From positions 13,561 through 77,560 of the forward strand of contig DASXUF010000017.1 in NCBI GenBank assembly GCA_036504975.1: 64,000 nt of DNA. The letters are read 5' to 3'. Origin of the DNA: Candidatus Binatia bacterium (GTDB lineage Bacteria > Desulfobacterota > Binatia > UBA9968). A model generated the notes under the pieces. That model was not told where the DNA came from and ran no database searches. It saw only the letters and a list, made by a program, of their open reading frames with translations. A program made the translations under genes and the position numbers. Below, in pieces: positions 1 through 59,690 of the stretch (the stretch's first letter is position 1; the number at the start of each line of letters is the position of its first letter).

Positions 1-253
1 CAGATTGTCTCGCGCAAAGGCGCAAAGGCCGCCAAGAAAAAATTCTTTTCACTTTGCGTTCTTGGCGTCCCTTCGGCTTTGCTCAGGACAGGCTTGGCGC
101 GAGTAAGTCCCAGAGTTCCGGAGAACTGCACACTCGTCCTGGCTCCTTTTGCCTGAGGCTGAATCGAGTTGTCAAGGACCGGCGAATTTGCCATAAGACA
201 AACTGAACGGAAAAGTTTCAGTACGAACACCCGCCGTCGTCGAGCGAACGAGA

Positions 254-1765: not shown

Positions 1766-2160
1766 GATGGCGTAAGTTCCGGATCAGACCCGGTGACTCT
1801 TTTGAACTTCGCCGCAAATTCCCGATCCTTACTTCAGTTCCCCCTGAGCTTCTTCACGCGCGCGAGAACGTCCGGAGGCTGCTCCAGGACGCGTTGAGCC
1901 AATTTCTGCAACTTCGCCGCTTACGGGATCGACTTCCATTTTTCCCTTTTTCCGCTTCGGCAAGCAGCTCGGGGGCCTTGAGCCGGTATCGATTAATCGA
2001 TATGTCCTTGCCCGAGCTGATGTCACCGAGGCCCGGGCGCGGCCTCTCCCGGCACGCGACTGTTCCACCTGGGAAACGGAATGCAGAGCGAACCTTCCTG
2101 TTCCCTCCGCTCACTCGGCGCCCCGAGGTCTCGATCGGGTGCGAAATTAGCCTATAGGAC

Positions 2161-2946: not shown

Positions 2947-3038
2947 GCTTTCGTCTCCCGTCTCCAGCCGTCGGCTTCAACGCTAAGCGCATGGCACAAA
3001 GGCTTGGCGCTCTGCTCTTGGCTCCTTGCGCCGTCGCT

Positions 3039-4774: not shown

Positions 4775-5778
4775 TCATCTCACGGCAAGAAACTCGTTGT
4801 AAAGCTTCATATACCGGCTGTAGTCCCCTTCCGGCTTAATCACGTGCAGATTATCGCTCTCGAGAAGCTGGTCGATATCCTTGGAGGGGCTCTTGACGCC
4901 GCGCCGCAATGGGATCTTCCCGGCTCTGGCCAGCGCCTGCTGCCCCTCCTGAGAGAGATAAAAATCGACCAGCAGGCGCGCGGCGGCCGGATGGAGCGGG
5001 TTTCTCACCGCCGCGACCGTGGAGATCGTTGCGAACGTGGGAGAGCTGGGAAGCCAATCGACGGGCGCCCCTTTTCGTTTCATCGCATCGACCTTGGATA
5101 CCTGCGCAAAAATGGTCAGAGGGTATTCGCCCGCGGCCAGGAGATTGACCATGTGAGTGTAGCCTTCCACCAGCCTCAACTCCTGTTGGCTCAACTTTTT
5201 GAGATAAGCCGCTCCCTGCTCCTCGCCGCGCAGAGAGATCATACCGGTAAAGGGATACGGGACTCCACGATTGACGGCCATCTGCCCTTTGAATTGCGGC
5301 TTGAGATATTCATCGTAATTTTTCGGCGCCGCCGCCTTCGAGATCATCTTAGGATTAAAGCCGGTGATGAGCAAATCGGTGGTCATGCCCGACCAGTAAC
5401 CGTCGGGATCCGAGCTTCCGCTGATGAGATTCTTGGTTTCCGCGGAGCGGTGGGCGGAGAGAACCCCTTGCTGCTTGAAGTAGAGCATCGTCTCCAGGCT
5501 GTTTCCCAAAACGTCCGCCTGCACCCTTCCCGCCCGATGCTCTTGCATGACCCGCGCCGCCTGTCGGGCCGAGCTCAGGTAAACGTGACGGATGTTGAGA
5601 AAGGGATATTTTTCCTTTGCCGCTTTGCTGAACGCTTCGAAGTCCACCACCGTCATGGTCGTGTAGAGAATGACCTCGCCTTCCTTCTTCGCCTGCTCGA
5701 CGTTGTCCGTCGCTTGCGCGAAACAGAAAGCGGGCCAGAGAAGGAGCGCCCAAAAAAGGAGATTATGTTTTGGCTTCA
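4775..5778 (-). CDS. extracellular solute-binding protein, family-1 (Fe3+/thiamine-type) ABC substrate-binding protein
   Basis: Start re-assigned to the internal ATG (MKPKHNLLFWALLLWPAFCFAQA), which gives a signal peptide and a GGAGGAGAAG Shine-Dalgarno sequence on the minus strand. Paralog of 21043..22125; shared blocks include AKKEGEV..YTT and HRAGRVQADV versus ARAGKYNVDV. Confidence 0.55.
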
Positions 5779-5810
5779 TGTCTTCTCCTCCAGGATAAAC
5801 CGGACGAACG

Positions 5811-7253
5811 TCAGACGCCGAACGCCAGGCTCTTGATGACGACCGGCACGTAATCCTCTCCCGGCACGATCGCTCCGACGTCGATGAAGTCCATCTCGCC
5901 GAGCGAGATTTCATCCACGCACGGCATGCTCAGTTCTTTTCCCAGCGCTTCTCCGATGACCCGGCCGATGTTCTGCTCGAAGACGAGCATCTGCGGCCGC
6001 TCGGATGCAGGCACCTCCGCCAAAGCGCGGCGTATTCCCGTCGCCAGCTCCTGTGCCGCGCCGTAGCCCAAGAAAGGCGGGGAGATAAAAACCAGCGCGA
6101 ACGGCGAGCCCTTGACCTCCGGATCCATGGCGGCGATCGTCTTTCGAATCGCCTTTGCGGCTTTATCCGCGATCGGCGCATCCCAACTCACCTGAACCGT
6201 CGAGACTCTTAAGTTGTGCAGCGGCAGTGTTTTCGGATTCGGAATGAAGATCGTCTCGCCGCTCATCTGCATCGAATACTGCGACGCGCCGATGACCGTG
6301 GCGCGGATGCCTTCGCTCGAATCGAGAACCGCGTAGCGCCGCTTCCGTGCCTGTTCCCGCACCTCTTTCCCGAACAATACGCCGAGATCCCCGAAGCTCC
6401 CGGCCTCGCGGCCGTAAATATATTCGGCAACGCCGCCGGAAAAAAGAACCCCGTCGATTTGAGGCGGCAGGGCAAGCGCAGGCATGATCATGATCTCGCT
6501 CCACGGCGGCTCGCCGCCGGCGATCAAATCGAAAAGGATTTGCGCCATCTTCGCGGCGACTCCCCTGAGCGTCGGCGCATCGATCGGGTCGCCCAGGGCC
6601 AGCTGATAACCGGCATGGCGCAAAAATTTCTTACCGGACTGCTCCAGGCGTCTGATCCGGCCGCTCTTGTCGAAGGCGATCAACCGCGCGCCGATGTTGA
6701 GCGCCGTGACGCCGACGACTCTTCCCTTGTCGATCAGGCTCACCTTCGTGGTGCCGCCGCCGACGTCGATGTTGAGAAGCGTCGTTGCCTCTTCGCGGCT
6801 GCGGCCGACGGCGCCGGAGCCGTGCGCCGCGAGCAGCGCCTCCAGTCTGGGACCGGCGGTCGCGCACACGAACTGACCCGCCTGGGCGGAAAAAAGCTCG
6901 GCGATTTTCTGCGCGTTCTCCCGCCGCGCGGCTTCGCCGGTGATGATGACCGCGCCGGTGTCGATTTGCTCGCGGTTAAGACCCGCGGCGCGGAAGCTGC
7001 CGTCGATCAATTCGGCCAGCGGCCCGGCTTCGATGTTCCAGTCCCCCGTGAACGGCGTCAGCAGAACGGGAGAGCGGGCGATCAGCTTTCGCTCTAAAAT
7101 TTCGGGACGGCGCCGGTGCGCCGACGGATAGCCGATCGCGAGCTGCGAGAACATCAGATGAGAAGTCGAAGAGCCGATATCGATCCCGACGCTGACGAGA
7201 TGCGTATGCGGCACCGCGCTGCTCTCGTGGTCGTGTCCATGGTGATTATCCAT
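5811..7253 (-). CDS. EutA/GlmL-like ASKHA-fold ATPase (putative enzyme reactivase/chaperone)
   Basis: 480 aa. Two actin-like ATPase phosphate loops (VGIDIGSSTSH near the N-terminus, VDVGGGTTK mid-protein). Size and organisation resemble ethanolamine-ammonia-lyase reactivase EutA and glutamate-mutase GlmL. Confidence 0.45.
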   Translation of the reverse strand: MDNHHGHDHESSAVPHTHLVSVGIDIGSSTSHLMFSQLAIGYPSAHRRRPEILERKLIARSPVLLTPFTGDWNIEAGPLAELIDGSFRAAGLNREQIDTGAVIITGEAARRENAQKIAELFSAQAGQFVCATAGPRLEALLAAHGSGAVGRSREEATTLLNIDVGGGTTKVSLIDKGRVVGVTALNIGARLIAFDKSGRIRRLEQSGKKFLRHAGYQLALGDPIDAPTLRGVAAKMAQILFDLIAGGEPPWSEIMIMPALALPPQIDGVLFSGGVAEYIYGREAGSFGDLGVLFGKEVREQARKRRYAVLDSSEGIRATVIGASQYSMQMSGETIFIPNPKTLPLHNLRVSTVQVSWDAPIADKAAKAIRKTIAAMDPEVKGSPFALVFISPPFLGYGAAQELATGIRRALAEVPASERPQMLVFEQNIGRVIGEALGKELSMPCVDEISLGEMDFIDVGAIVPGEDYVPVVIKSLAFGV

Positions 7254-7457
7254 AACAAAATTTTGAATCTTGCCCCTCGTCAGTGTTAAAAAAATCCGTT
7301 CTTCAAGGCGGTCAGAAAGGTTTCAGCTGCGCGGCGCGCGAAGGTCCGCGAGCGGAGGCGTACTTTTTTTCAGTACGTTGACGCCATAGCCCGCCACTGG
7401 CGGGCGTTCCGCTAACCGGCCGAGCGCGACCATCTTAACGCTATGGCAGATGAGCCT

Positions 7458-8555
7458 TTATGGCCGCCTTGCTAGTGTAGTGTAGTAATCCGCTGGTTCC
7501 CCCTGCTGCGTATGCACGTACCCCGTCGACTCCATGGCGACGCGGCCGGAGTGGACGAGAAATCGCGCCGTCTCCTTGCCGGTGTTGAAGTGCTGGTGCC
7601 AGGCGAAGACCGGAATCACCAAGGTGTCGCCTTTCTTCCAATCGTATCTCTGGTCCTCGATGATACTGTAGCCTTCGCCGGAGAGCACGTATTCCGTTTC
7701 TTCGTAAATGTGCCGGTGCGCGCCCGAGCGCTTGCCAGCGGGAATTTCCGCGAGCAGAGTGCCCAAGATCTTCACGTGAAAGCCGAGCTTCGGATCGACT
7801 GCGTACGCGACCCGTCCCATCGGCGTCAAGCCGAAGCGCAATGTGCTTCCCTTGACCAGCACTTTCCCCGCTCTCCTGCGTTTTTCTTCGTGCTCAGCGT
7901 AAGTCAGTTGCTCGTAATAAATCTCCGCGGGACTGGGCTCGCCGCCGTTGCTCGTCTCGGCCGGCTTCCACTTGGCCGAGTCGAACTTGACTCGCGCTTC
8001 CGCCGGGATCTCCGCGCCTCCCGGCACTAGCGTCTTCATCGCCTCCTCGCCTTTCTGCGCGAAGATCCAGTACTCGGGATATTTTTCTTCTTCGTAGATC
8101 GCGATGCCCATCGCCATCGACAGCGGGCCCGTCGTCGCCGCCAGATAGACCAGCTCGTCGCCGCTCTCGTTGTGGTGCCGATGCCAGGCAAAGACCGGAA
8201 CACAAATTAAATCGCCGGCTTGCCAAGGATACTTGATCCCATCAATGACGCTGTAGCCATGCCCTTTGAGAATATAGATGACGGCCTCGACGGTATGGCG
8301 GTGGCCCAATTGCCAGCCGCTGAATTCCATCTCCTCGCCGGCGGTGCGGAGATTGATCCAGAAGCGGAAGGTCCGCTGGTTGAAGCCGAGGCGCGGATCG
8401 ACGATGTAGACGTGGTTGTGGTCTTTGAGCTGCGCGTCGATCTCCTCGGCCCTGACGTGGACCGGCGATTTTTTTCTTCGCTCCAGCTCCTCTTTGCCGA
8501 AGCGGATATGCTCCATCCGCATCCGCAAGTGGTCTTCTTTTCGCGCCATCACCAT
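7458..8555 (-). CDS. bicupin (two cupin barrels), gentisate-1,2-dioxygenase-like ring-cleavage dioxygenase family, copy 1
   Basis: 365 aa. Two cupin cores with His-containing motifs (GHRHTVEAVIYILKGHGYSVIDGI in the N-terminal barrel, SGAHRH...YVLSGEGYSIIED in the C-terminal barrel). Strong paralogy to 10555..11637; shared blocks include ICVPVFAWHRH, YPEYWIFAQK and ARFLVH. Confidence 0.6.
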   Translation of the reverse strand: MVMARKEDHLRMRMEHIRFGKEELERRKKSPVHVRAEEIDAQLKDHNHVYIVDPRLGFNQRTFRFWINLRTAGEEMEFSGWQLGHRHTVEAVIYILKGHGYSVIDGIKYPWQAGDLICVPVFAWHRHHNESGDELVYLAATTGPLSMAMGIAIYEEEKYPEYWIFAQKGEEAMKTLVPGGAEIPAEARVKFDSAKWKPAETSNGGEPSPAEIYYEQLTYAEHEEKRRRAGKVLVKGSTLRFGLTPMGRVAYAVDPKLGFHVKILGTLLAEIPAGKRSGAHRHIYEETEYVLSGEGYSIIEDQRYDWKKGDTLVIPVFAWHQHFNTGKETARFLVHSGRVAMESTGYVHTQQGEPADYYTTLARRP

Positions 8556-9522: not shown

Positions 9523-10463
9523 TTCAAACCTCGCGCGAACGAATAATCGAAGATCTCGCTCATCGGCAGCGCCTTTTTTCCCAGCTCGCCGCGGCTCTGC
9601 GCCCGCTCCAAAAATATATTAACGCGCTCTTCCGGCATCACCAGATCGTCAACCATGACGCCGGCGATGTCATCATACGCTTGCGCAGCGACATCCGGGG
9701 CCACCTGCCAGCTCTGTTGAATGTAGGCGACCGTGCCCTGCCGATCCTGGCGCACGGTTTTCAGCGTCTCGCGCAAAGCGAGAAGGAAGCTCCGGATGCG
9801 ATCCGGCTGTTTCTGGATTTTCTGCCGGCTCGTCACGACGCCGAGCCACGGCGCCTCGATCAGATCGCGGCTGTTCATGAGGACCTTATAGCCCTGGCGC
9901 GCCATGAGTCCGGTGAACGGCGGGCTCAGGACCGCGGCCTCGACCGAACCCTGCTGGAGCGCCGTCAGACTCACCGTCGTGCTCCCGGTCTGGATAAAGG
10001 TGATTTTTTTCTCATCGACGCCGCTGTTCTCCAGCATCAACGCGCCGTAGCGGTGGCTCTCCGAGCCGATGCGCGAGACCGCGACTTTCTTTCCTTCCAG
10101 ATCTTTCGGCCGCACGACGTGCGCCGGAGCCAGGAGCGAGAGCAGCGGCGCGCGATAGAGAACCGCCACGGTTTTCAGCGGCATGCCGTTGCTGATCCCG
10201 AGGATCGCCGGTCCGATCGCCGGATTGAAATCCAATTCACCGGAGACCAGACCGATCGTCTGGAGATTGCTCTGCATCGAAATAATTTCCAGGTCGATGC
10301 CGTGCTTCTCGAAGATCTTTTTATCTTTGCCGTAGTAGAACGGCAGAAACACCACGCTCCGGACGGAGACGCCCAGGCGCATCTTCTCCAATGCAGCAGC
10401 GGGAGAGGCTAAGACAATCGCCCCTAAGAGGACAGCGACAGATAATCGGCTTCGCGTAAACAT
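9519..10463 (-). CDS. ABC-transporter substrate-binding protein, NMT1/THI5-like, copy 2
   Basis: Start moved to the ATG giving MFTRSRLSVAVLLGAIVLASPAAA, a signal peptide. The upstream in-frame extension in the ORF track is a translated REP-like repeat. NMT1-like pattern present (LEGKKVAVS, GSVEAAVL). Confidence 0.6.
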   Translation of the reverse strand: MFTRSRLSVAVLLGAIVLASPAAALEKMRLGVSVRSVVFLPFYYGKDKKIFEKHGIDLEIISMQSNLQTIGLVSGELDFNPAIGPAILGISNGMPLKTVAVLYRAPLLSLLAPAHVVRPKDLEGKKVAVSRIGSESHRYGALMLENSGVDEKKITFIQTGSTTVSLTALQQGSVEAAVLSPPFTGLMARQGYKVLMNSRDLIEAPWLGVVTSRQKIQKQPDRIRSFLLALRETLKTVRQDRQGTVAYIQQSWQVAPDVAAQAYDDIAGVMVDDLVMPEERVNIFLERAQSRGELGKKALPMSEIFDYSFARGLK

Positions 10464-10554
10464 AGGCGTTGATCCTATTTCAGATCCTTCACTTCGTTCA
10501 GGATGACGGAGTATGCTCCGAAATGTCATTCTGAGCGAAGCGAAGAATCTCTCC

Positions 10555-11637
10555 TTAAAAGGATGCAAGTTCACCCTGTTGCGTTATCATCAACCCGATA
10601 TTTTCCATTGCGGGTCTACCCGTATGCACTAAAAATCTCGCCGGCTCTTTGCCGGTGTTGAAGTGTTGGTGCCAGGAAAACAGCGGGATCGCCAGGGTGT
10701 CGCCCTGTTTCCATTCGTAGCGTTTGTCCTCGATGATGCTGTAGCCTTCCCCGGCAAGCACGTGATTCACTTCTTCGTAGAGATGGCGATGAGCGCCGGA
10801 GCGTTCCCCCGGCTCGATCTCCGCCACCAAGGTCGACATGACCTTTACATAAAAGCCGAGCTTTGGGTCAACCACTGGCGCGACGCGGCCCATCGGAGTC
10901 TTCTCGAACTTGAGATCGCCGCCCTTCACGAGGACCCGGCTCTTTCTGCGCTCGCGCTCTTCGTTCTCGCCGAAGTTCAACTGATCGAAATAAAGTTTTG
11001 CCGCGGTCGAATTTTCGAACTGCGCCGGATCCAGTCCCTCGGGCGCCCCCCTCCGGGCTTCGGGAATATCCACCACGCCGGGAAGCAAGGTTTTCTCCGC
11101 GCCGTTTTCTTTCTGGGCGAAGATCCAGTATTCGGGATAGCGCTCGTCTTCGTAAATCGCGAGACCGATGCCCATCGACAGCGGCCCGGTCGTCGCCGCG
11201 ACGTAAACCATGTCTTCGTTCGAAAGATTCACGTGCCGGTGCCAGGCGAAGACGGGAACGCAAATAAAGTCGCCCGCCTCCCAGTCGTATTGGATGCCGT
11301 CGATGATGCTGTAGCCGTGGCCTTTGAGCACGTGGATCACCGCCTCGACCGTGTGACGGTGGCCCATGGTCTTCCATTGATTGTTTTCTTCGCCGGGCGG
11401 AAAGCCGTTGATCCAGAAGCGCAGGATGCGGGCGTTGAAGCCGAGCCGAGGATCAACCAGCACCACCCAGTTGTGGCCCATGAACTCGCGGTCGATTTTT
11501 TCTCTCGGGACGTAAACTGGCGACGTTTCCCGGCGCTTCAGCTCCTCCTTCGCGAACTTCACCATCTCCATGTACATGCGGAGATAGTCGTCGTAACCGG
11601 GCGGTTTTCCGGTAGATTTGTCCTTCTCTTCACTCAT
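10555..11637 (-). CDS. bicupin dioxygenase-like protein, copy 2
   Basis: 360 aa, paralog of 7458..8555 with the same two cupin cores (GHRHTVEAVIHVLKGHGYSIIDGI; SGAHRHLYEEVNHVLAGEGYSIIEDKRYEW). Confidence 0.6.
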   Translation of the reverse strand: MSEEKDKSTGKPPGYDDYLRMYMEMVKFAKEELKRRETSPVYVPREKIDREFMGHNWVVLVDPRLGFNARILRFWINGFPPGEENNQWKTMGHRHTVEAVIHVLKGHGYSIIDGIQYDWEAGDFICVPVFAWHRHVNLSNEDMVYVAATTGPLSMGIGLAIYEDERYPEYWIFAQKENGAEKTLLPGVVDIPEARRGAPEGLDPAQFENSTAAKLYFDQLNFGENEERERRKSRVLVKGGDLKFEKTPMGRVAPVVDPKLGFYVKVMSTLVAEIEPGERSGAHRHLYEEVNHVLAGEGYSIIEDKRYEWKQGDTLAIPLFSWHQHFNTGKEPARFLVHTGRPAMENIGLMITQQGELASF

Positions 11638-11646
11638 GACCGCAGC

Positions 11647-12426
11647 TCAAGCCCCTGGTTCAGCCGCCTCCAAGCCGGCGCGCAGCATCAGGCCATGTAG
11701 CTCCACCGACGTCATCGCGCAGTATTCGACGCCGTAAGTCGGCCGCTCGGACGCCATGCCCGATTCCAACAAACGCTGCAGCGCCAGGCGATTGAAGCTG
11801 CCGTGGCCCATAACGCCTTCCTCGTGCTCTTCGAGGTCGGCCTCGTAGTGCGTGGCGAAATAAATCGCCTGATCGCGCGTAAAACCGTAATGCTTAGTCA
11901 GCGCCTTGTAGCATTCGGCCGACCAGTGGCCGATCTGCTCTTCCGTAGTGATCGAGCCGTACCATTCGGCGGCGGTTCCCTCCGAGAGAACGCCGCGCAT
12001 GAAATCGATCTTGCCGCGAAACCCGGAGAGCAGCGGCTGAGAGAAGATCTCTTCCTCAGTGAGGCCGAAAGCCTTCGCCGTCTGTAACATGACAAGGAAA
12101 TGGCCGGGCGGCTTGGGATGAATGAACTCGTCGGCGATCTTCTCGCCGAGCGGCGCCATTAGCTCGCGATGCGTCTTAAAGAACGGCAGGTGGCGCTGAT
12201 AAGAACAGGCGGCGAGCGTGTTGATCTCGATCGTGTAAGCGCCCCAGTTGCGAAAGAAGCTCCGCCACGCTTCGAGCGGCAGTTTCCCTTCCTTGAGAAG
12301 CGTCATGAACGGCGTGCGGTTGACCCGTTCTTCCCACCGGTCGGCAACTTTGCGGTACAGCTCATCGACGACCGCCTTCGCCTTCTCGGATGAAAGTTTC
12401 TCGCCGGGTTGAATTCTCAGGCTCAC
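11647..12426 (-). CDS. TenA/PqqC-like heme-oxygenase-fold protein, copy 2
   Basis: 259 aa, about 65-70% identical to 2161..2946 by eye across the whole length (NWGAYTIEINTLAACSYQR, HYEADLEEHEEGVMGHG). Confidence 0.55.
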   Translation of the reverse strand: MSLRIQPGEKLSSEKAKAVVDELYRKVADRWEERVNRTPFMTLLKEGKLPLEAWRSFFRNWGAYTIEINTLAACSYQRHLPFFKTHRELMAPLGEKIADEFIHPKPPGHFLVMLQTAKAFGLTEEEIFSQPLLSGFRGKIDFMRGVLSEGTAAEWYGSITTEEQIGHWSAECYKALTKHYGFTRDQAIYFATHYEADLEEHEEGVMGHGSFNRLALQRLLESGMASERPTYGVEYCAMTSVELHGLMLRAGLEAAEPGA

Positions 12427-12435
12427 GGAAGTCTC

Positions 12436-13494
12436 CTATCGTTTCTTTTGCAAGATCTCGTCCCGCGCTTTCTGCGCGAACGACCAGTCGCGTAGCTGGC
12501 TCATGGGAACGTCGCGCTCGGTTAGTCCGGAAAACCTTGCCGCGTCGACGGCGCTTTCGAGCACGCCGTCCTCAGCGATGCCGTAGTCCGCCAGCGACTC
12601 GCTGACGATCGGATACACCGCGTCGGCCACGCTCCGGTCCAAGCTCAGCCAACTCATCATGAACTTCACCGTCTCTTCGCGCTCGCTTTTCACCCACTGG
12701 ATGCCGCGGGCGATCGCCTTCATGACGCGGACGACCTCCTGCGGATTTTCTTGCAGCCGCTTCTCGTGCGCGCCCAGGCCGCCTTGCGGCAGATCCATTA
12801 CTTTGCCGAGCCAGAGCAGGGACCGATAGCCCATTTTTTCCGCCTGGAGGTTGAACGGCGCCACGAGCACCGTGGCTTGTATCGTCCCGCCCTGCAGCGC
12901 CGCGAGCCTGCCGGCGCTGCCGCCGACCTGGATGATCGTCACGTCCTTCTTGGGATCGAGGCCGCCCTTCCGCAGCGCGATGCGGATCGCGTAGTCGCTC
13001 GCCGCGCCGAAAGAGCTGGTGCCGATGACCTTGCCCTTTAGATCCTGGATGGTGCGGACCGACGGATGCGACACCATCACGTAAGAAGTTTTTTTGATCA
13101 TCACGCCGACGACCTTGATCGGCAGTCCTCTAACCGCCGCCGTGACCAGAGACGGCAGCGCGGTGGAGTAGTCCAACTGCCCCGTCAGCAGTGCCTTGAT
13201 GATGATGTCGGCGCTCCGGATCGTGATCATCTCCGGGTCGAGCCCTTCGTCTTTGAAATATCCGCGCTTGGCCGCGATCTCACTGGGGAGCGTCGTGATG
13301 CTTGGCGTCGTCGAGCCGATGCGGATGCGTTTGAGCGACTGCGCGTGCAGCGGAGAAGCGACAAGAAGCGCGAGCGCGAGAATTATCGGCAGGACGAAAA
13401 CAGCCCCCTCACCTTTATCCTCTCCCCCGATGGGGGAGAGGAAGGAATAGGGGAAGTTGAGAAATCGCCGCTGCATGCGTCCCATCCTTATCAT
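12436..13494 (-). CDS. ABC-transporter substrate-binding protein, NMT1/THI5-like, copy 3
   Basis: 352 aa. Hydrophobic signal-like segment (VFVLPIILALALLVASPLHAQS) preceded by an N-extension that overlaps a REP-like palindrome, so the true start is uncertain. Contains LKGKVIGTS and ALQGGTIQATVL motifs. Confidence 0.5.
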   Translation of the reverse strand: MIRMGRMQRRFLNFPYSFLSPIGGEDKGEGAVFVLPIILALALLVASPLHAQSLKRIRIGSTTPSITTLPSEIAAKRGYFKDEGLDPEMITIRSADIIIKALLTGQLDYSTALPSLVTAAVRGLPIKVVGVMIKKTSYVMVSHPSVRTIQDLKGKVIGTSSFGAASDYAIRIALRKGGLDPKKDVTIIQVGGSAGRLAALQGGTIQATVLVAPFNLQAEKMGYRSLLWLGKVMDLPQGGLGAHEKRLQENPQEVVRVMKAIARGIQWVKSEREETVKFMMSWLSLDRSVADAVYPIVSESLADYGIAEDGVLESAVDAARFSGLTERDVPMSQLRDWSFAQKARDEILQKKR

Positions 13495-50688: not shown

Positions 50689-51822
50689 ATGAAAGTCGGA
50701 ATTATCGGCGGCGGACCCGCAGGTCTCTACTTCGCACTGCTGATGAAGAAACACGACCCGCAGCACGAGATCGAGATCGTAGAGCAGAACCCGCCCGACA
50801 GCACTTACGGCTGGGGCGTCGTTTTTTCGGGCCGCGCCTTGTCATTCCTGGAAGAGAGCGACCGCGATTCCTACGCCGATATCGCCCGCAGGCTTGAACT
50901 TTGGGACCAACAAGGGATTGTCCACAAAAGTCAAAGGGTCGCGATTCGCGGCGGCACATTTTCCGGGCTCGCTCGAATCGACCTCTTGCGCATTTTACAA
51001 GAACACTGTCGGAAAGCCGGCGTAATATTCCACTTTCAAACCCGGGTCTCCGATCCGGAGCTTTTTTCCGACTGTGACCTCGTCGTCGGCGCGGACGGCG
51101 TCAACAGCATCGTGCGGCAGAAATATCGGGAACACTTTCAACCGACGCTGGACGTGCGGTCGAACAAATATGTCTGGTACGGAACGAATCAGCGGTTCGA
51201 CTCCCTGACCTTGATCTTTCGCCAAAACCAAGACGGTGTCTTCGTCGCCCATTCTTACAGCCACAGCAAAAGCGCCAGCACTTTCATCGTCGAGTGCGAT
51301 GCGCCCACCTGGGTTAAAGCAGGCTTTGAATCGATGACCGACGAAGAAAGCCGCAGTTACTGCGAGGAGGTCTTCAAAGACGATCTGGGCGGCCACACGC
51401 TGCTGTCGAACAAGTCCGTGTGGATTAATTTCGTCGTGGTGGGTAACCGGCGCTGGAGCTATAAAAACATCGTGCTGATCGGCGACGCGCTCCGCACGGT
51501 GCACTTTTCCATCGGCTCAGGCACGAGAACGGCGTTCGAAGACGCGATCGCGCTGTACCGGACCTGTGCGGCGAACGAAAACGTTGAAGCGGCGCTGGGT
51601 GAATTTGAGCGAAGCAGAAAGCCGACCGCCGATCGGCTGCTCGAGGTCGCGCATCATAGCCTGGTTTGGTACGAGCGCTTTGGGGACAAGATGGATCTCG
51701 ATCCCATCCCCTTTGCCTACGATTACATGACGAGAGGCGGAAGAATCGATCACGAAAAGCTGCGCGAGCGAGATCCCGAATTCATCGCCGCGTACGAAGC
51801 CTACAAGGCATCGCAGTCGTGA
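50689..51822 (+). CDS. FAD-dependent aromatic-ring monooxygenase (salicylate-hydroxylase / UbiH-like)
   Basis: 377 aa. GxGxxG (KVGIIGGGPAGL), DG motif (VVGADGVNS) and GD motif (VLIGDALRTVHFSIGSGT). Confidence 0.8.
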   Translation: MKVGIIGGGPAGLYFALLMKKHDPQHEIEIVEQNPPDSTYGWGVVFSGRALSFLEESDRDSYADIARRLELWDQQGIVHKSQRVAIRGGTFSGLARIDLLRILQEHCRKAGVIFHFQTRVSDPELFSDCDLVVGADGVNSIVRQKYREHFQPTLDVRSNKYVWYGTNQRFDSLTLIFRQNQDGVFVAHSYSHSKSASTFIVECDAPTWVKAGFESMTDEESRSYCEEVFKDDLGGHTLLSNKSVWINFVVVGNRRWSYKNIVLIGDALRTVHFSIGSGTRTAFEDAIALYRTCAANENVEAALGEFERSRKPTADRLLEVAHHSLVWYERFGDKMDLDPIPFAYDYMTRGGRIDHEKLRERDPEFIAAYEAYKASQS

Positions 51823-51867
51823 ATGCCGGCAAATGTTTCGCCACTCAAAGCGAAATGCGTGGGAGCC

Positions 51868-53886
51868 CTACTTTTTTTGGGACGCAGTACTCTCTTTTGG
51901 AACCGTCCGAAGTACCACACCTCGATCTCGTGCCCAACACTCCCTATCTGTCTCAGGGCACGCTGGACCTTCCTCACTGGTGATTGTAATGCGGTTGCTC
52001 TCAATACCTCCACGTGTTTGCAAGTAGTTGACAATACTTTCTGCCCTTTTAGACGGTAAATCCAAACTTTCCCCGGAAAGCGGATTTTGTCTCTTATACC
52101 AAACAACAAGTAAGCTATAATTTGGGTTTTGTTTAAAGAACATTGCGAGACGATCCAGAAGTTTTGCGGCATCCGGTTTCAAAGCAGTCTTGTCAAAATC
52201 AAACAACACAATGTTGTCAAGAATTACGGTACGTTCAATCTTAGGAGAGGGAGCGGCTTTTTTCGCCTGCTGCTCCACCTCTTCCAACCTCTTTGCCGCT
52301 TCTTCCGTTCTCCGCTGCACCTCGGCGACCTGTTTCTCAAATTGAGCAGCCCGCTGAACTTCGGGCTGTTGACCACCACCGGCAGCGGCTTTCCTTTGCA
52401 AGGCATTCAATTTTGCCAAGGTCATTGCAAGCTCTTCTTGAGCCACAACGAGATCTTTCGCCCGCATTGCGATACCCTGCTCTAACTTCGCTTGTTCAAC
52501 TGCCCTTAGTGCGGTTTGCCGCTGCAGATCAGCCTCCCTCTTTTGGAACAAGGATACACTAGTACCCAGAATAAGCATTATCGCAAAAATCGTCTTAAAA
52601 ACGGTTGGCACACGAAACCGCCGGCTCCTCCTTACTGCGCCCGCTACGCTGTCGTGACTAAGCTCATAATAAAATCCCTTCAGACCAGGGCGGGCCTCTT
52701 TTCGTATCAGCTTGGCATCGACAAGTGTTTTCAGCGCATTCTCCGAGATCCCGTATTGTTTACGAATCTGACCGTACTCCATGCTTATTCTGTGGCCGTC
52801 TGGACTCAGAAGTCCTAGTTCGCATAGACGTCGCGAGCGGCAACGCTGCCGAAAAGATGAGATCTCTCGCACAGCTTGACGGTAGAAATTTTCGAGGAGT
52901 TTTTCCATGTTCTTGGCGCCACCGAGCAATTGGTCATCAACCAGGATGTCTTTTGACCCTTCTTGCTGGCGGCGAAGAACCTGTTGCTCCGCGTGCTGGC
53001 AGATAATTTGAAGCTGAAACGGTTCCACTTCACCTTGTCGACTGGCCAGAAAAGCCATTATGCTGTCGAGCGTAGCTTTCTTATAACGAAAAGGCCGCGT
53101 CGCGAACACTTCAGGTAAGTCCAGAAGCGCCGGCTCAACCACGGCTCGTCGAGCCGCTTGCGTATCCAACGGTGTGAGACGAAATCGCTGCTCGAAGATT
53201 CCGGGAATATTCTGGACAAGTTGCTCCAGCGCTCCCACGTACTCTTCGCGGAAACTCAAGATAATCTTAATTTCTGGTGGCGAGTCCGCATAACGCCCGC
53301 GATCTGGCGAGGGCGGCTCCTTACGAATCCTTTCCGGTAAGCCTCGGCCGACAAGCTCCCCCAGTTGACGTGCGAGGGCGACGCGAACAGATTCCGACTG
53401 CAGATTGAATACCTCCTCGAATTGATCGAAGACCAGGACCGGTACCTGAAGCGTATCACCGCGCCATAAGTCCGTGGCCTTGAAAAATTCCCACAAACCT
53501 TCAGTTTTACGGTCGGTATAGTCAACCGCCTGTTCCTGACAGGTAGTTCGCAGCAACGCAAAAACAGCTTCAATGGGACCGATATCGGGTCGATCAAGCC
53601 GTATGCTTACGGGCAGTAGTCCGTACTCGCGGAGTCGTGGGAAAAGGCCTGCTCTTAGAAGAGATGTTTTTCCCAGACCCGATTTGCCGAAAATGACGAG
53701 CATGCGAGTCGCTCGAACCCGATGCACTAAATCGTAGATTTCCTGCTCGCGGCCAAAAAACAATCGTTGATCGAGTTCGTTGTCTTCGAAGTACCGTGGA
53801 CCGGGATATCGCTCGTGTGAGCCGGGCGTCAGAGACAAGACTGTTTCTTCTTCACGCTTCGCTATGGCGACCGCAGCTTTACTCAC
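51868..53886 (-). CDS. STAND-type P-loop NTPase with central TM helix, periplasmic coiled coil and C-terminal OmpA-like peptidoglycan-binding domain (island gene 4)
   Basis: 672 aa, GTG start 2 nt after the upstream stop. The N-terminal NTPase has Walker A (GKSGLGKTS) and Walker B (VLVFDQFEE) in an nSTAND/AAA_16-like context, preceded by the FGREQEI motif. A hydrophobic segment (VFKTIFAIMLILGTSVSLF) follows, then a Gln/Ala/Glu-rich coiled coil. The C-terminal ~100 aa (LFDFDKTALKPDAAKLLDRLAMFFKQNPNYSLLVV...SKRAESIVNYLQTRG) are OmpA_C-like. Low-GC segment. Confidence 0.55.
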   Translation of the reverse strand: MSKAAVAIAKREEETVLSLTPGSHERYPGPRYFEDNELDQRLFFGREQEIYDLVHRVRATRMLVIFGKSGLGKTSLLRAGLFPRLREYGLLPVSIRLDRPDIGPIEAVFALLRTTCQEQAVDYTDRKTEGLWEFFKATDLWRGDTLQVPVLVFDQFEEVFNLQSESVRVALARQLGELVGRGLPERIRKEPPSPDRGRYADSPPEIKIILSFREEYVGALEQLVQNIPGIFEQRFRLTPLDTQAARRAVVEPALLDLPEVFATRPFRYKKATLDSIMAFLASRQGEVEPFQLQIICQHAEQQVLRRQQEGSKDILVDDQLLGGAKNMEKLLENFYRQAVREISSFRQRCRSRRLCELGLLSPDGHRISMEYGQIRKQYGISENALKTLVDAKLIRKEARPGLKGFYYELSHDSVAGAVRRSRRFRVPTVFKTIFAIMLILGTSVSLFQKREADLQRQTALRAVEQAKLEQGIAMRAKDLVVAQEELAMTLAKLNALQRKAAAGGGQQPEVQRAAQFEKQVAEVQRRTEEAAKRLEEVEQQAKKAAPSPKIERTVILDNIVLFDFDKTALKPDAAKLLDRLAMFFKQNPNYSLLVVWYKRQNPLSGESLDLPSKRAESIVNYLQTRGGIESNRITITSEEGPACPETDRECWARDRGVVLRTVPKESTASQKK

Positions 53887-53888
53887 GA

Positions 53889-55211
53889 TCAGTCCCCTCT
53901 AATACGGTTCTGCCGCTTAACCCAGTTCGCCTGGATGTGACTCGCCAGGCGTTCCAGGCCATGTGGATCAGTCAGTTCAACACGCTGTAACTTATCCAGG
54001 CGTTCGAGTCCTAGGGACCCTTCCAAAATTGCAGGAATCAGAAAAGACTCGCCCTCATCGAATTCCTTTTGCCGCTCCAGTGCTTCCGCGATCTCTTTAT
54101 GGATATAACTCCGCGGTTTCGAAAGCATGTTCGGTGTTTGAAGTACAAGTACGTAGTCCACTTGCTTCCCCAGGACATGTACGATGCGTCTATTCCAATC
54201 ATCGCCACCGCGGAGATCCTGCTGGTCGCGCCATGTATCGACCCCGAGGCTATGTAATTTTTGCTCCACTTCCATCACCCGCTCTTGATCACGCCTATCG
54301 TAGCAAAGGAATACTTTGGGAGAGTTGGGCGGTATTTCCCGTACTACTGCCTGTGGAGCTTGTGCTTCGTAGAGCCGACGCAGCTCAGACGCAAAGTCGG
54401 ACCACGAATAATGCCGGAACTCGATCTTGTGCTCCTGGGTGAAAAACACTGCGCTTTGAGCGCTATCCGGGTGGTCGAAGAATGCAGCACCTTCTACCGC
54501 CAACGATCGATTACGATGGCGATACGTTTGCAAGACGTGAAGCAGCACACGCGCGTACCAGCGCTGAAAACCAAAACCAAGAAACAGAAACGACGTGCCA
54601 GGGTCGGCGAGCTGACCCGCGATATACGGCGGCAGAGGATGGGTACCTTTGATTATATTTACCAGGAATTCCAGCAAGTCGGTCTCTGTTAATACCAACG
54701 AATCTAGTTCCTTAAGATCGCCGTGGAGTTGATAGACGATTGGATGCTGAATAGTACCTTTGGAGAGACTCGTCGGCCGATGTTTCTGGTAATGGTAAAA
54801 GTCGTAAGTCGAAGATTTGTGGGCATCTTTCAAAGCGTTTACCATGAAGGGGACATAACTCATGCTCAAACAAAGTGTAAAAGGCAACGCAGCGAGATCT
54901 TCATGAAACCGCGAGGTACGCTTCGCAAACGGCGCATAGAAGTCCTTTACTTCCAGTTCCAGATCGTAGTGATCACCTCCGGGACTGTTGCAACGGAGCT
55001 GAGCCACCTGGGCTAAGTCCTTCCGAATGATATCTGGCGTATCTGCCGGCAGTTTTCGAGCCAGGTGTTGGGCGAGTTTGGTTGTGAGCGGGGTGTGATC
55101 AGGGTCGTCGGGATCAAAAACCATATCAGGTCCGCATACGAGGACACAGTTGCCCCGATTGATCGATTCAATTAAGCGGCGCCAGTCTTGTTCTGAAAGG
55201 CTATCTTTCAT
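53889..55211 (-). CDS. SIR2-like (SIR2_2/DHS-like) N-domain fused to a C-terminal TIR domain (island gene 3)
   Basis: 440 aa. The N-terminal ~250 aa match SIR2_2-type blocks (NCVLVCGPDMV ... HPIVYQLHGDLKELDSLVLTETDLLEFL ... SFLFLGFGFQ). The C-terminal ~140 aa form a TIR domain (KVFLCYDRRDQERVMEVEQKLHSLGVDTWRDQQDLRGGDDWNRRIVHVLGKQVDYVLVLQTPNMLSKPRSYIHKEIAEALER) with the conserved Glu context. Confidence 0.55.
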   Translation of the reverse strand: MKDSLSEQDWRRLIESINRGNCVLVCGPDMVFDPDDPDHTPLTTKLAQHLARKLPADTPDIIRKDLAQVAQLRCNSPGGDHYDLELEVKDFYAPFAKRTSRFHEDLAALPFTLCLSMSYVPFMVNALKDAHKSSTYDFYHYQKHRPTSLSKGTIQHPIVYQLHGDLKELDSLVLTETDLLEFLVNIIKGTHPLPPYIAGQLADPGTSFLFLGFGFQRWYARVLLHVLQTYRHRNRSLAVEGAAFFDHPDSAQSAVFFTQEHKIEFRHYSWSDFASELRRLYEAQAPQAVVREIPPNSPKVFLCYDRRDQERVMEVEQKLHSLGVDTWRDQQDLRGGDDWNRRIVHVLGKQVDYVLVLQTPNMLSKPRSYIHKEIAEALERQKEFDEGESFLIPAILEGSLGLERLDKLQRVELTDPHGLERLASHIQANWVKRQNRIRGD

Positions 55212-55271
55212 GTCAGAGTCTTTTTCTAGTCGGGTCGCAATTCCGTTTCAGGACAACTGCACCTAGAACAA

Positions 55272-56144
55272 CTAACTCAACGTTAGCTCGGCCTTTCCAA
55301 TTCCGCCGGCCGGAATTGTGACGGATATTTCAGATGCTTTGGGAGTACCGTTAATGATTCCTTCCGCCTTTACGACATGCACTCCAGGCGACAACTCTCG
55401 AAGAGCTGCGCTCTTACCGGTATAGTTGGCCGGACTTCCTCCGTCGATCGAGAGTTTCCAAACCGCCGCGCTCTGATCGCCATTCGTTACAGTTACGTTT
55501 AAACCTCCCAACTCGCTCACAGCCGCCTTTGCCCTCGCGGCCTCTTCTACTTGCTTCAAACTTTCCTGAAATTCGCGAATCCAAGTATTCGTCTCCTCTT
55601 GGACGACCGTTGTGACCTGATTAATAAAAGTCTTCGCCCGGCCCAGCATCGTTTGGACCTGGTCATCCGTCGGGTCTGATCCCTTCCAACCCGCTTTCAA
55701 GGTTTGCCATTCCAATTCGAACTCCCGTAGAAGCTGACGAATCCGCAGCTCCGCCGAAATGTAACGCATCCACCCGCTGGAAAAACCAAAGAAGCGGTCG
55801 ACTACGATCATCGCGGCGGCAATACCCAAAGACACGGAAGCCCATGCCGGCTGTATCAACGGCTTGCCGTCCTCAACAAAAATCTGAACTACCATCGGAA
55901 TAATTCCGGCCAGTGCTGTTAGAACGATTGCTCCCATTCGCGCCCGCATTGCCCATTGCTGTTTAGGTCGTTTTGCTTTCAAGTACCAATCTATAGCGCT
56001 TTTAGCCTCGGCCGTTAGGTGATCAAATAAAAGCTCAAGAGAATTCTGGCGCTTGCTAGGCTCCCATTCTAATTTAGGAAGTGGAGAATGTTGAATGTCC
56101 GTCCGCTTAGGCATTCCTGACTGTTTCCGCCTTATGGCAATCAA
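55272..56144 (-). CDS. SLATT-like 2-TM protein with C-terminal beta-rich (Ig/PEGA-like) domain (island gene 2)
   Basis: 290 aa. An amphipathic N-helix (AIDWYLKAKRPKQQW) is followed by two closely spaced TM helices (MGAIVLTALAGIIPMVV / VSLGIAAAMIVVDRFF). A helical segment follows (WMRYISAELRIRQLLREFELEW), as in SLATT pore-forming effector domains. The C-terminal ~90 aa are beta-rich. Confidence 0.4.
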   Translation of the reverse strand: MIAIRRKQSGMPKRTDIQHSPLPKLEWEPSKRQNSLELLFDHLTAEAKSAIDWYLKAKRPKQQWAMRARMGAIVLTALAGIIPMVVQIFVEDGKPLIQPAWASVSLGIAAAMIVVDRFFGFSSGWMRYISAELRIRQLLREFELEWQTLKAGWKGSDPTDDQVQTMLGRAKTFINQVTTVVQEETNTWIREFQESLKQVEEAARAKAAVSELGGLNVTVTNGDQSAAVWKLSIDGGSPANYTGKSAALRELSPGVHVVKAEGIINGTPKASEISVTIPAGGIGKAELTLS

Positions 56145-56324
56145 TCCTCAGCCTAGCTGGTTGGTTAGTAAAATAGGGCGAATTGTGGATTGGTGTCAAG
56201 ACGAAACAGGGATGATCCCGAATCAAATAATTTTTGCGTCGCTTTTGCTCCGTCTTTGAAGGACGACTCACTTTTCAAAACGGTAGCTTTGGAGGGCAGG
56301 TCAGTCAAAATAAGACGCTGCAAT

Positions 56325-57131
56325 CTACGCTTTTTGGAATCTGAGTTGCCCATCTCTAACCTCTGCCGAAAATTCTACAATTTGAAACGTAATATTCTCG
56401 CCGGTTACTTGGATTCCTAAATTATATAAACCATCCGGAAATTTATTAGGTCGCGATCTGTCGGCGTAAAAAATGACAAATTCTTTCTCATCTCCAGCCG
56501 CCTCAACCTTTCCAACGACGGTAATAAAGTTGCTCCCACCTGGATTTAAATCGAACGCTGTCCTGTAGGGAATGTCGTCATCTGATGGCCTGTCATGCAT
56601 CTGCCTGAGCGGAATAGGTAAGAATGGAACTCTATATTCTCTGACGTAAGCTAGCTCCACTTTGATGTTTTTTAGCACCACATCACTTAGATTTTTTATT
56701 TCAATTCGATGCATCCGTAGAAAAGCACCAGCCCAAACCTCATCTACTTGTTCATACGATCCTCCGACATCATGTAGAATTGCGACTTTAGCTGTTAACC
56801 GGTCCTCGAAATATTCGATGGTTTGGCGTTGCGAGATATCAATTAATACGGGAGTCGCAATGGTACGCACTAGAAAAAATCCCGCAGCAACTATCATGAA
56901 TGCCCCAAAAATCGATAGGGCAGGAATCACGACATCATCTGTTAGCTTAGGGATTTCCCATTCAAAGATATTTACCAAAAAATACCAGCCTATTACCGTG
57001 ACTAATGCCGTCTTGAGAACTGAGGCAAAGGATCCAAATATCCCTGTAACCGTATCCTTAAAAGCTTTCGCAAGAATCGTTCTCCAATATTGACCAAAGT
57101 GCTTGGCGAACTTCCAAGACAAAACCAGCAT
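56325..57131 (-). CDS. hypothetical integral membrane protein (island gene 1)
   Basis: Start placed at internal ATG (MLVLSWKF) with a GAAGGGGGG RBS. Three or four N-terminal TM helices then a ~170-aa soluble domain with no recognisable motifs. Lowest-GC gene of the island. Confidence 0.4.
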   Translation of the reverse strand: MLVLSWKFAKHFGQYWRTILAKAFKDTVTGIFGSFASVLKTALVTVIGWYFLVNIFEWEIPKLTDDVVIPALSIFGAFMIVAAGFFLVRTIATPVLIDISQRQTIEYFEDRLTAKVAILHDVGGSYEQVDEVWAGAFLRMHRIEIKNLSDVVLKNIKVELAYVREYRVPFLPIPLRQMHDRPSDDDIPYRTAFDLNPGGSNFITVVGKVEAAGDEKEFVIFYADRSRPNKFPDGLYNLGIQVTGENITFQIVEFSAEVRDGQLRFQKA

Positions 57132-57297
57132 ACCTGCCCCCCTTCCAATCGCGGGCAGTCTAGGACGTACCTCCGATTTAGGCAAACGATGGCGGAAACT
57201 ACTTTGGTCTCAAGTCCGACTTGATTACCAAAGCGTTGAGTCGGAGAGTGGCCTGAACTCTAGGTTTAAATTAGTTTTCTCCGGACTCGGATTGTCA

Positions 57298-59051: not shown

Positions 59052-59291
59052 GTGAACAAGATCAACATTCACCAGGCAAAGACCCAGTTTTCCCGGCTCG
59101 TCGAGCGCGCCGCCGGAGGCGAAGAGATCGTCATCGCCAAGTCGGGCAAACCAATCGCCCGCTTGGTTCCTTATACCGCGCGGAACGAGCCCCGCCGGCC
59201 CGGGTACCTGCGCGGGAAGATCCGCGTCAAGAAGACATTTGATCGAGCTCTCCCAAAAAAGCTGCTGGCATCCTTTGAAGGTAAATCCTGA
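59052..59291 (+). CDS. type II antitoxin, Phd/YefM family
   Basis: 79 aa with the N-terminal Phd-like motif (INIHQAKTQFSRLVERAAGGEEIVIAKSGKPIARLVP). Stop overlaps the toxin start. Confidence 0.7.
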   Translation: MNKINIHQAKTQFSRLVERAAGGEEIVIAKSGKPIARLVPYTARNEPRRPGYLRGKIRVKKTFDRALPKKLLASFEGKS

Positions 59292-59294
59292 GCC

Positions 59295-59690
59295 GTGGTG
59301 CTGCTCCTCGATACCCACGTCCTGATCTGGTGGTTGGCAGACGACCGCAGGCTAAGCAAGGACGCACGCAACTTAATCGCCGACGCCCATCACCGGGTGC
59401 TCGTTAGCGCCGCGTCCGTCTGGGAGATTGCCATCAAATCCGCTCTAAAAAGGATTGAAATCGAACTCGACGACCTGGAGGACGCGATTCTCAAAAGCGG
59501 ATTCGAGCCTTTGCCGATCGCCCTGCTACATGCCGTCCGAGTCGGTCGACTGCCAGATGTTCACCGTGATCCGTTCGACCGCATGCTGGTAGCTCAAGCC
59601 GGCGTCGAAGAACTGCGGCTAGTCACTCATGATCGAGTATTCGAGCGCTACGGTCTGACCGCCGAAGGCCTGCCACCCATTTTCGTTTGA
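59295..59690 (+). CDS. vapC: type II toxin VapC (PIN domain RNase)
   Basis: 131 aa, GTG start. PIN acidic residues (LLLDTHVLIWW ... SVWEIAIK ... LVTHD). Confidence 0.8.
   Translation: MVLLLDTHVLIWWLADDRRLSKDARNLIADAHHRVLVSAASVWEIAIKSALKRIEIELDDLEDAILKSGFEPLPIALLHAVRVGRLPDVHRDPFDRMLVAQAGVEELRLVTHDRVFERYGLTAEGLPPIFV

Follow-up and report, generated by a model that had tools for sequence, protein, structure and literature searches.

Does a bacterial protein that joins a SIR2-like domain to a TIR domain work alone, making a signal with one half and reading it with the other, or is it one part of a larger machine? The question is raised by a gene for 440 amino acids (aa) in a 64,000-nucleotide (nt) stretch of contig DASXUF010000017.1 from Candidatus Binatia bacterium, hereafter called the window. 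A first-pass annotation of the window had drawn this open reading frame (ORF) exactly where we find it (53889-55211, minus strand), with every quoted peptide block present, and had suggested that the protein might be a self-contained producer and receptor. Here we describe a large family with the same architecture, SIR2L-TIR, in which the SIR2 fold has lost its catalytic residues at the family level, the TIR domain looks competent, and a second gene encoding an nSTAND1 NTPase accompanies the first at nearly every locus. These features point to a two-gene, NLR-like module of which SIR2L-TIR would be the effector.

A SIR2 Fold without Catalytic Residues, Joined to a TIR Domain

The combination of a SIR2-fold N-domain and a TIR C-domain in one polypeptide is borne out by Pfam, which assigns SIR2_2 to aa 121-233 (E 2e-10; 41.4 bits, with the cut-off at 24.5) and TIR_2 to aa 300-422 (E 4.8e-16; 59.8 bits, with the cut-off at 28). 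The SIR2 domain of ThsA is the nearest solved sequence relative of the N-terminal half, its structures being matched by the family profile at E 1.5e-12, and the same profile also matches KomC. An AlphaFold2 (AF2) model computed from a 43-sequence alignment has a mean predicted local distance difference test (pLDDT) score of 90, and a Foldseek search with this model retrieved ThsA at 2.8e-12. The N-domain is thus modeled as a dinucleotide-binding Rossmann fold of the SIR2 type, and the outcome that would have spoken against the first-pass annotation, an N-domain without a Rossmann-like SIR2/DHS fold, did not occur.

It had already been noticed that the TTNYD-type catalytic block is replaced in this protein. 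Since TTNYD of ThsA aligns with S-M-S-Y-V, the equivalent of ThsA N112 is Ser118, and the degeneracy turned out to be wider than this one block. Residues were counted in an alignment of 186 sequences that combines the window protein with 120 homologues from the database and with the full-length copies found in 80 genome loci. Position 118 holds Thr in 99, Ser in 38, Ala in 18 and Cys in 15 of them, and Asn in none. At position 163, corresponding to ThsA H152, Tyr (101) and Phe (75) prevail and His occurs twice, one case being the window's own His163; as the family mostly has Tyr or Phe here, His does not seem to be under selection. The GAG loop, which catalytically intact SIR2 relatives carry, has Pro at its middle position in 149 sequences, and the place of its second Gly is taken by Asp (92), Gly (39), Arg (16), Glu (16) or Gln (9), that is, by Asp, Glu, Arg or Gln in 133 cases and by an acidic residue in 108. 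To judge from these residues, the whole family has a pseudoenzyme for its SIR2-fold domain, conserved but no longer catalytic.

The dead domain is not a decaying relic. Across eight close pairs the ratio of nonsynonymous to synonymous substitution rates (dN/dS) is 0.06-0.13 in the SIR2-like domain versus 0.10-0.38 in the TIR domain, with mean pairwise identities of 0.42 and 0.43, respectively, and purifying selection on it is at least as strong as on the TIR. The suggestion that the SIR2-like part is a nucleotide-binding sensor rather than an enzyme therefore divides in two: its non-catalytic character holds, Asn being absent from the whole alignment, and the sensing of nucleotides is disfavored, as the degenerate phosphate-binding loop would argue against binding of an NAD-type ligand. 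Moreover, the residues conserved in the dead domain (GFGF..W..R and SLVLTE.D) are mostly common to catalytically intact relatives, which suggests that they build the core of the structure and do not line a newly evolved pocket.

The TIR domain presents a different picture. The family profile matches the TIR structures of Cat1, SARM1, AbTIR and SPARTA at about 1e-9; the best PDB sequence match of the TIR profile is the SARM1/TIR-1 chimera 8p2l_A, and SARM1 entries score about 1e-8. Glu373 is found in 186 of 186 sequences, so the catalytic glutamate expected by the annotation is indeed kept. The profile segment 'ykEiklAl' is aligned to 'HKEIVTAL' of SARM1, and '(Y)xHKEI' to 'WVHKEI'; this HKEI segment of SARM1 contains the catalytic Glu642 (E642), which we take to be the equivalent of Glu373. 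An invariant glutamate lying on the catalytic motif of SARM1 makes the TIR domain look catalytically competent. Its nearest sequence matches in PADLOC and the PDB are mostly TIRs of the effector type, namely TIR-SAVED, the TIR-APAZ of SPARTA, Cat1 and SARM1.

An Obligate nSTAND1 Partner with a Variable Tail

The SIR2L-TIR architecture is common, with more than 300 word-indexed database matches, and an exhaustive profile search at E ≤ 1e-30 gave 926 cluster representatives (50% identity) from at least ten phyla. Eighty loci (L001-L080) were drawn from species-representative genomes of Nitrospirota, Acidobacteriota, several classes of Pseudomonadota, Verrucomicrobiota, Desulfobacterota, Myxococcota, Actinomycetota, Bacteroidota and others. 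Directly downstream and on the same strand, 77 of these 80 have an nSTAND1 ORF homologous to the window gene at 51868-53886; of the other three, two lie at the end of a contig and one is a copy with a frameshift. The same gene order is seen in the three closest relatives (L081-L083, 61-66% identity), giving 80 of 83 loci overall. No other family exceeded 7 of 81 loci in an all-versus-all clustering of flanking ORFs.

The junctions between the two genes are tight. Among 65 that could be scored, 18 have a 4-nt overlap and 3 a 1-nt overlap, 17 have a gap of 0-20 nt and a single one a gap of more than 20 nt, which indicates translational coupling. In the window, the GTG start of the nSTAND1 gene lies 2 nt past the TGA of the TIR gene, with a GAGGGG motif upstream. 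Natural single-chain fusions also exist: P0261 carries SIR2L (1-284), TIR (297-425) and nSTAND1 (453-895) in one frame, and P0357 has the order SIR2L-TIR-nSTAND1-TIR. Given the pairing in 80 of 83 loci and these fusions, SIR2L-TIR is obligately paired with an nSTAND1 NTPase and is not self-contained, contrary to what the first-pass annotation had supposed. Nor did Pfam detect a SLOG or Macro domain in any of the four genes of the locus.

Two homologues, P0068 and P0085, were considered as 'TIR-less' members in which the dead SIR2 would stand alone with nSTAND1; they look like split or decayed copies, L089 having a separate overlapping TIR ORF and L088 a 630-bp gap, both beside transposases.

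The window NTPase is recognized by Pfam nSTAND1 at 103 bits (E 3.5e-29), and Walker A and Walker B (SGxGKTS, hhhhDQFEE) are kept in 64 of 65 partner NTPases. On the contrary, the C-termini of the partners are hypervariable, consisting of FGE-sulfatase/C-type-lectin domains, TPR arrays, WD40+Ank+Sel1, RHS+PDZ, or nothing. The OmpA-like tail of the window NTPase is unique among the 120 best nSTAND1 homologues, and as a single predicted transmembrane (TM) helix at aa 426-447 precedes the OmpA-like domain, a periplasmic location of the tail is expected. In L053, an ORF of its own, about 360 bp 3′ of the nSTAND1-TPR gene, weakly resembles the C-terminal part of the window NTPase (E 5e-5). In four loci (L081, L003, L019 and L066) the pair adjoins genes of a diversity-generating retroelement (DGR), Avd plus reverse transcriptase (RT), and a tail scan of L081 identified FGE-sulfatase as the NTPase tail beside them.

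Single metagenome-assembled genomes (MAGs) may hold two to four paralogous SIR2L-TIR and nSTAND1 pairs whose NTPases differ in length (L022/L034/L052; L040/L041/L049/L055; L016/L027; L007/L064; L031/L042), and such multi-copy sets resemble an NLR repertoire. Three paralogues from different MAGs, L018, L040 and L078, have as their tails TPR, TPR and no Pfam-detected domain, respectively. In L082, a close relative, the region directly upstream of the pair (3-3267) holds three genes, one for a CHAT domain, one for a standalone TIR_2 and one for 352 aa without a Pfam match, which may represent another conflict module or further accessory effectors.

Origin of the Dead SIR2 Domain

Three operons that were found by way of their SLATT neighbour (L085, L091 and L113) have a SIR2-only gene in the same slot 5′ of nSTAND1. 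These genes keep TTNYD or VTNYD and HG, and also GAG where the N-terminus is present. L085 (788-5849) has two tandem SIR2_2 genes, one with TTNYD, HG and GAG intact and one with TTDYD, followed by nSTAND1-TPR and SLATT_2; this tandem may mark a step on the way from partners with an active SIR2 to those with a pseudo-SIR2. Additional N-terminal domains of the effector type precede the pseudo-SIR2-TIR core in some longer members (P0421, P0428, P0386, P0028 and P0385), including the caspase-like CHAT, a second TIR and a ParA/MinD-like P-loop domain. The simplest reading would be that SIR2 was the original effector docked on nSTAND1 and that TIR was fused later, whereupon catalysis by SIR2 was no longer needed and its fold persisted as a platform for docking and oligomerization. 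Because related nSTAND1 operons carry an intact SIR2 without TIR, the dead SIR2 is probably an inherited scaffold for docking or oligomerization.

A Model for the Two-gene Module

We judge it rather probable, though by no means certain, that SIR2L-TIR supplies the effector in a conflict or defence module of two genes, NLR-like in that it has a STAND NTPase, and by analogy this module is probably an anti-phage defence system. The nSTAND1 NTPase would serve as sensor and switch, its variable C-terminal domain detecting the trigger; in the window locus, the sensor would be the periplasmic OmpA-like peptidoglycan-binding domain on its one-TM tether. NTP-dependent oligomerization of the NTPase would then cluster the associated effector, the clustered TIR with its SARM1-type catalytic Glu would turn active in NAD+ cleavage, and the infected cell would stop growing or die. 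The pseudo-SIR2 is envisaged as a docking and oligomerization scaffold coupling the effector domains to nSTAND1, retained by selection and probably derived from the catalytically intact SIR2 effectors of sister nSTAND1 operons. Docking via the pseudo-SIR2, NADase activity, activation by oligomerization and the defence role are steps that we infer.

Several observations weigh against this model. The contact between pseudo-SIR2 and nSTAND1 is deduced from co-occurrence only, and neither PADLOC (2023) nor NCBIfam (2026) has a family-level model for either protein, so the defence role rests on analogy and context. The cADPR-isomer (cyclic ADP-ribose isomer) producers SeThsB and AbTIR score about equal to effector TIRs, and a TIR that depletes NAD+ cannot be separated by sequence from one that produces a signal. 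The window protein keeps His163 and 39 of the 186 sequences keep the second Gly of GAG, which would allow some residual ligand binding by the N-domain. Finally, a SLATT gene neighbouring the pair hints that the output at the window locus may exceed simple NAD+ depletion.

The SLATT Neighbour and an Exchange of Cassettes

The SLATT domains were reportedly defined by Burroughs and colleagues in 2015 (in NAR). The SLATT_2 gene of the window lies 60 nt upstream of the SIR2L-TIR gene on the same strand, with a GC content (0.513) like that of both downstream genes and a promoter-like site ahead of it. This arrangement suggests an alternative, a STAND-controlled cascade in the manner of type VII Thoeris, where nSTAND1 activates the TIR and, beyond mere NAD+ depletion, a cADPR- or ADPR-type signal made by the TIR opens the two-TM pore of SLATT, the real killer. 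Operons of TIR and SLATT have been experimentally validated as type VII Thoeris, consisting of the TIR protein ThsB and the SLATT protein ThsH, with canonical cADPR as the signal (Yirmiya et al., bioRxiv 10.64898/2025.12.03.692087). Furthermore, the same SLATT subfamily recurs beside other cassettes of TIR or SIR2 with an NTPase: TIR-AAA_35 and AAA_35-WD40 in L084, TIR-WD40 in L087, SIR2 and nSTAND1 in L085 (as SIR2+SIR2+nSTAND1), L091 and L113, and nSTAND1 in L112, L147 and L153. L091, L112, L113, L147 and L153 are metagenome loci, a set that contains further cases.

L084, on a related metagenome contig, is collinear with the window, with 79-90% nt identity over the genes for a periplasmic binding protein, an AMP-ligase and SLATT, and SLATT itself is kept (83% nt and 88% aa identity) while the TIR and NTPase cassette downstream differs. 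The identity breaks off at 55279, where SLATT has its 3′ end, and returns with the FAD-monooxygenase gene (51822), such that window 51822-55279, encoding SIR2L-TIR and nSTAND1-OmpA, is exchanged for L084 4806-10384, encoding TIR-AAA_35 and AAA_35-WD40. Either SLATT is a shared effector served by exchangeable sensor-enzyme cassettes, or the site 3′ of SLATT is a hotspot of a defence island.

However, SLATT fails as a conserved partner, being absent from all 83 other family loci: neither a phmmer search with the window SLATT nor a 33-sequence SLATT profile found one in L001-L080, and SLATT is likewise missing from the gene tables of L081-L083. The SIR2L-TIR and nSTAND1 pair therefore functions without SLATT. 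The association with a TIR or SIR2 and NTPase cassette amounts to about 10 of 84 SLATT loci (51 with usable flanks), a raw count, and co-location in a defence-island hotspot might explain the adjacency. Several of the SLATT-linked modules hold an intact SIR2 in place of TIR, and SIR2 is not known to produce cyclic signals. A functional link is possible, and SLATT may be an accessory membrane effector outside the conserved core, but we consider the cascade rather unlikely, and likewise SLATT as the main route of output. The fullest version is unlikely in our view: a three-tier cascade in which the NLR-like NTPase, anchored in the membrane, uses its periplasmic peptidoglycan-binding domain to sense the envelope and assembles the pseudo-SIR2-scaffolded TIR, whose NAD+-derived product gates the SLATT pore. 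If true, bacteria would have an equivalent of the path in plants by which a TIR-NLR acts on a pore-forming helper by means of a small molecule. SLATT would be the fixed effector and the TIR/SIR2 and NTPase cassettes interchangeable sensors, a view suggested by the swap that distinguishes L084 from the window.

The C-terminal region of SLATT (aa about 205-290; 55272-55530, minus strand) is conserved, beta-rich by eye and lacks a Pfam match, its consensus in the alignment of the subfamily being ..TVTNGDQ..GW.LSID.G....LTL. A two-TM hairpin would put this region on the same membrane side as the N-terminus, and it might be a module for binding a ligand or partner.

Other Explanations of the Fused Protein

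The idea of a self-contained producer and receptor can be restated with a cADPR isomer as the product of the TIR. The degenerate SIR2 in the same polypeptide would bind this isomer or else NAD+, in the latter case as an allosteric sensor like the ARM domain of SARM1. The dead SIR2, with dN/dS about 0.1, is strongly conserved and must have some function, its fold is of a dinucleotide-binding type, the catalytic Glu of the TIR is intact, and the second Gly of the GAG loop survives in the minority of sequences mentioned above. Nevertheless we find the idea improbable: the nSTAND1 partner is obligate and fusions with it exist, the three motifs of the SIR2 NAD site are all degenerate, with an acidic residue for the phosphate-contacting Gly in 108 sequences, and the conserved residues of the N-domain are largely those of intact relatives. 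The chain has no output domain other than the TIR itself, and known receptors of Thoeris signals are SLOG or Macro domains and others, not SIR2 (Yirmiya et al., bioRxiv 10.64898/2025.12.03.692087).

It is slightly more improbable that the inactive SIR2 is a guarded decoy, mimicking defence sirtuins to trap phage anti-SIR2 inhibitors (DSAD1-like), such that binding of the inhibitor, rather than the C-terminal sensor of the NTPase, triggers the TIR. Inactive enzyme domains have been proposed as decoys in STAND and ternary conflict systems (Kaur et al. 2020, PMC7159879), and the SIR2 surface is conserved with catalysis lost. But a decoy in an arms race is expected to evolve fast, whereas dN/dS is low, and the hypervariable, DGR-associated NTPase C-termini look like real sensors.

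A role outside phage defence, as an envelope-stress or kin-conflict/programmed-death switch with the OmpA-like domain reporting peptidoglycan integrity, would fit the predicted TM helix and periplasmic domain of the window NTPase and the tie of such STAND systems to multicellular or social bacteria made by Kaur et al., yet it is very improbable. The OmpA tail belongs to the window protein alone among its 120 best homologues, and the family as a whole bears the signature of a system that recognizes invaders, with variable repeats, association with DGRs, location in islands, horizontal spread among phyla and repertoires of several copies. We retain the two-gene nSTAND1 module as the preferred account.

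Other Features of the Locus

The positions of the features are compiled in Table 1. GC content is 0.51 in the SLATT, SIR2L-TIR and nSTAND1 genes and 0.57-0.61 in the housekeeping flanks. Promoter-like consensus matches are no more frequent in the region than in shuffled sequences, and the promoter and terminator scans, with counts equal to those of shuffles, are informative only for the one promoter-like site before SLATT; this putative promoter could drive a transcript of SLATT, SIR2L-TIR and nSTAND1.

Table 1. Features of the SIR2L-TIR locus, in window coordinates unless a locus is named.
Feature	Position	Strand	Basis or remark
Pseudo-SIR2-TIR gene, 440 aa	53889..55211	-	ORF, ATG start and TGA stop; Pfam SIR2_2 and TIR_2; AF2; fold matches
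Pseudo-SIR2 domain, aa 1-288	54348..55211	-	Predicted SIR2 fold, catalytic motifs degenerate
G27-P28-D29 of pseudo-SIR2 domain			Replaces GAG loop
Ser118 of pseudo-SIR2 domain	codon 54858-54860	-	Replaces catalytic Asn
His163 of pseudo-SIR2 domain	codon 54723-54725	-	Position Tyr/Phe in 176/186 homologues
TIR domain, aa 298-425	53937..54320	-	Pfam TIR_2
Glu373 of TIR domain, motif SYIHKEIAEAL	codon 54093-54095	-	Invariant in homologues
Partner gene, 672 aa, nSTAND1 NTPase	51868..53886	-	Pfam nSTAND1 3.5e-29, OmpA 4.6e-10; NCBIfam Pal/OmpA matches
nSTAND1 NTPase domain of partner	aa 27-414		Pfam
Walker A of partner, GKSGLGKT (aa 67-74, Lys = K73)	53665-53688	-	
Walker B of partner, VLVFDQFEE	53413-53439	-	
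Predicted TM helix of partner, aa 426-447	52546-52611	-	Hydropathy
Coiled-coil-looking stretch of partner	aa 426-672 region		Judged by eye
OmpA-like peptidoglycan-binding domain of partner, aa 561-638	51973-52206	-	Pfam, NCBIfam Pal/OmpA
SLATT_2 two-TM protein, 290 aa longest ORF (280 aa annotated)	55272..56144	-	NCBIfam 7.4e-41, Pfam 1.8e-20
Sigma-70-like promoter match TTGACA-18-TATTTT, 10/12	56170..56199	-	Consensus match just 5′ of SLATT
Avd + RT, L081	4182-5618		
Avd + RT, L003	about 5085-7749		
Avd + RT, L019	about 11515-12956		
Avd + RT, L066	about 9994-11597		

Further upstream, a 286-aa protein with two predicted TM segments is encoded at 56325-57185 (minus strand), with a GC content of 0.43 versus 0.51 in its neighbours. 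It was rejected as a member of the system: no homologue lies beside any SIR2L-TIR family member, Pfam, PADLOC and NCBIfam give no match, its GC content deviates, and the gene is missing from the syntenic L084, where a 287-aa product taken as its possible counterpart proved to be an AMP-ligase fragment. The gene looks like a separate recent insertion. A Phd/YefM antitoxin and PIN toxin pair (59052-59690, plus strand; Pfam 5e-10 and 5e-19) belongs to a stretch of about 860 bp that is missing from the syntenic L084.

Comparison with Known Systems

Avs (AVAST) proteins, such as the SIR2-STAND protein EfAvs5, share with the module an effector, a STAND NTPase and a variable C-terminal sensor, and the rare single-chain members of the SIR2L-TIR family are fusions like Avs proteins. 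The SIR2 of Avs5 is reportedly activated by formation of filaments or oligomers. In contrast to Avs, effector and NTPase of the module are normally separate, overlapping genes, fused only in P0261 and P0357, and the SIR2 is catalytically dead, the added TIR being presumably the active part. The NTPase is a member of the nSTAND1 clade, and among curated models of defence systems it has matches at the level of the P-loop only in PADLOC v2.0 (E 0.0065 or weaker) and none in NCBIfam.

Type I Thoeris, composed of ThsA (SIR2-SLOG) and ThsB (TIR), employs the same two NAD+-processing folds, and its ThsA SIR2 is the best solved-structure match of the N-domain. Here, however, the folds are fused in one chain, the SIR2 is devoid of the Asn, of the His at the family level and of the GAG loop, and a STAND NTPase, foreign to Thoeris, is the obligate partner. 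The likeness to type VII Thoeris consists of adjacency alone, a TIR-containing gene adjoining a SLATT gene on the same strand in the window. This adjacency recurs in none of 83 other loci, the conserved partner being nSTAND1; type VII has no NTPase, whereas the window TIR protein has a pseudo-SIR2 domain and depends on one. With SARM1/TIR-1, the local (Y/W)xHKEI motif with its catalytic Glu is common to both, but SARM1 is regulated by its ARM and SAM domains in an octamer rather than by a STAND NTPase, and there is no homology beyond the TIR.

Also close to the module are the nSTAND1 conflict systems, which have the same NTPase clade, TIR among their effectors and recurrent inactive enzyme domains (Kaur, Burroughs, Iyer & Aravind, eLife 2021, PMC8195603), and the DGR-diversified STAND 'antigen sensors', to which the FGE-sulfatase/C-type-lectin tails beside Avd and RT in some loci bear a likeness (Dore et al., PNAS 2024, PMC10907252). 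In these systems the effectors are linked by EAD/Death-like adaptor domains, which are absent in the SIR2L-TIR module, and the searchable text of both papers makes no mention of a pseudo-SIR2-TIR as dedicated upstream partner of nSTAND1. We found no published description of such a partner, the papers retrieved that name TIR and SIR2 together all dealing with prokaryotic Argonaute (pAgo).

With this large, apparently uncharacterized family, the NLR-like systems of bacteria would gain a branch that is built on nSTAND1 and divided between two genes. The apparent replacement of a SIR2 NADase effector, turned into a pseudoenzyme scaffold after TIR was appended, makes the role of dead enzyme domains in immune complexes testable, and the diverse sensor tails, among them those adjoining DGRs and the unique periplasmic OmpA, may inform how bacterial NLRs recognize their triggers. 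Lastly, the recurrent SLATT and the swap of cassettes suggest that effectors in the membrane may be fed by TIR or SIR2 enzymes under the control of STAND proteins, which would link immunity of the Avs type with that of the Thoeris type.

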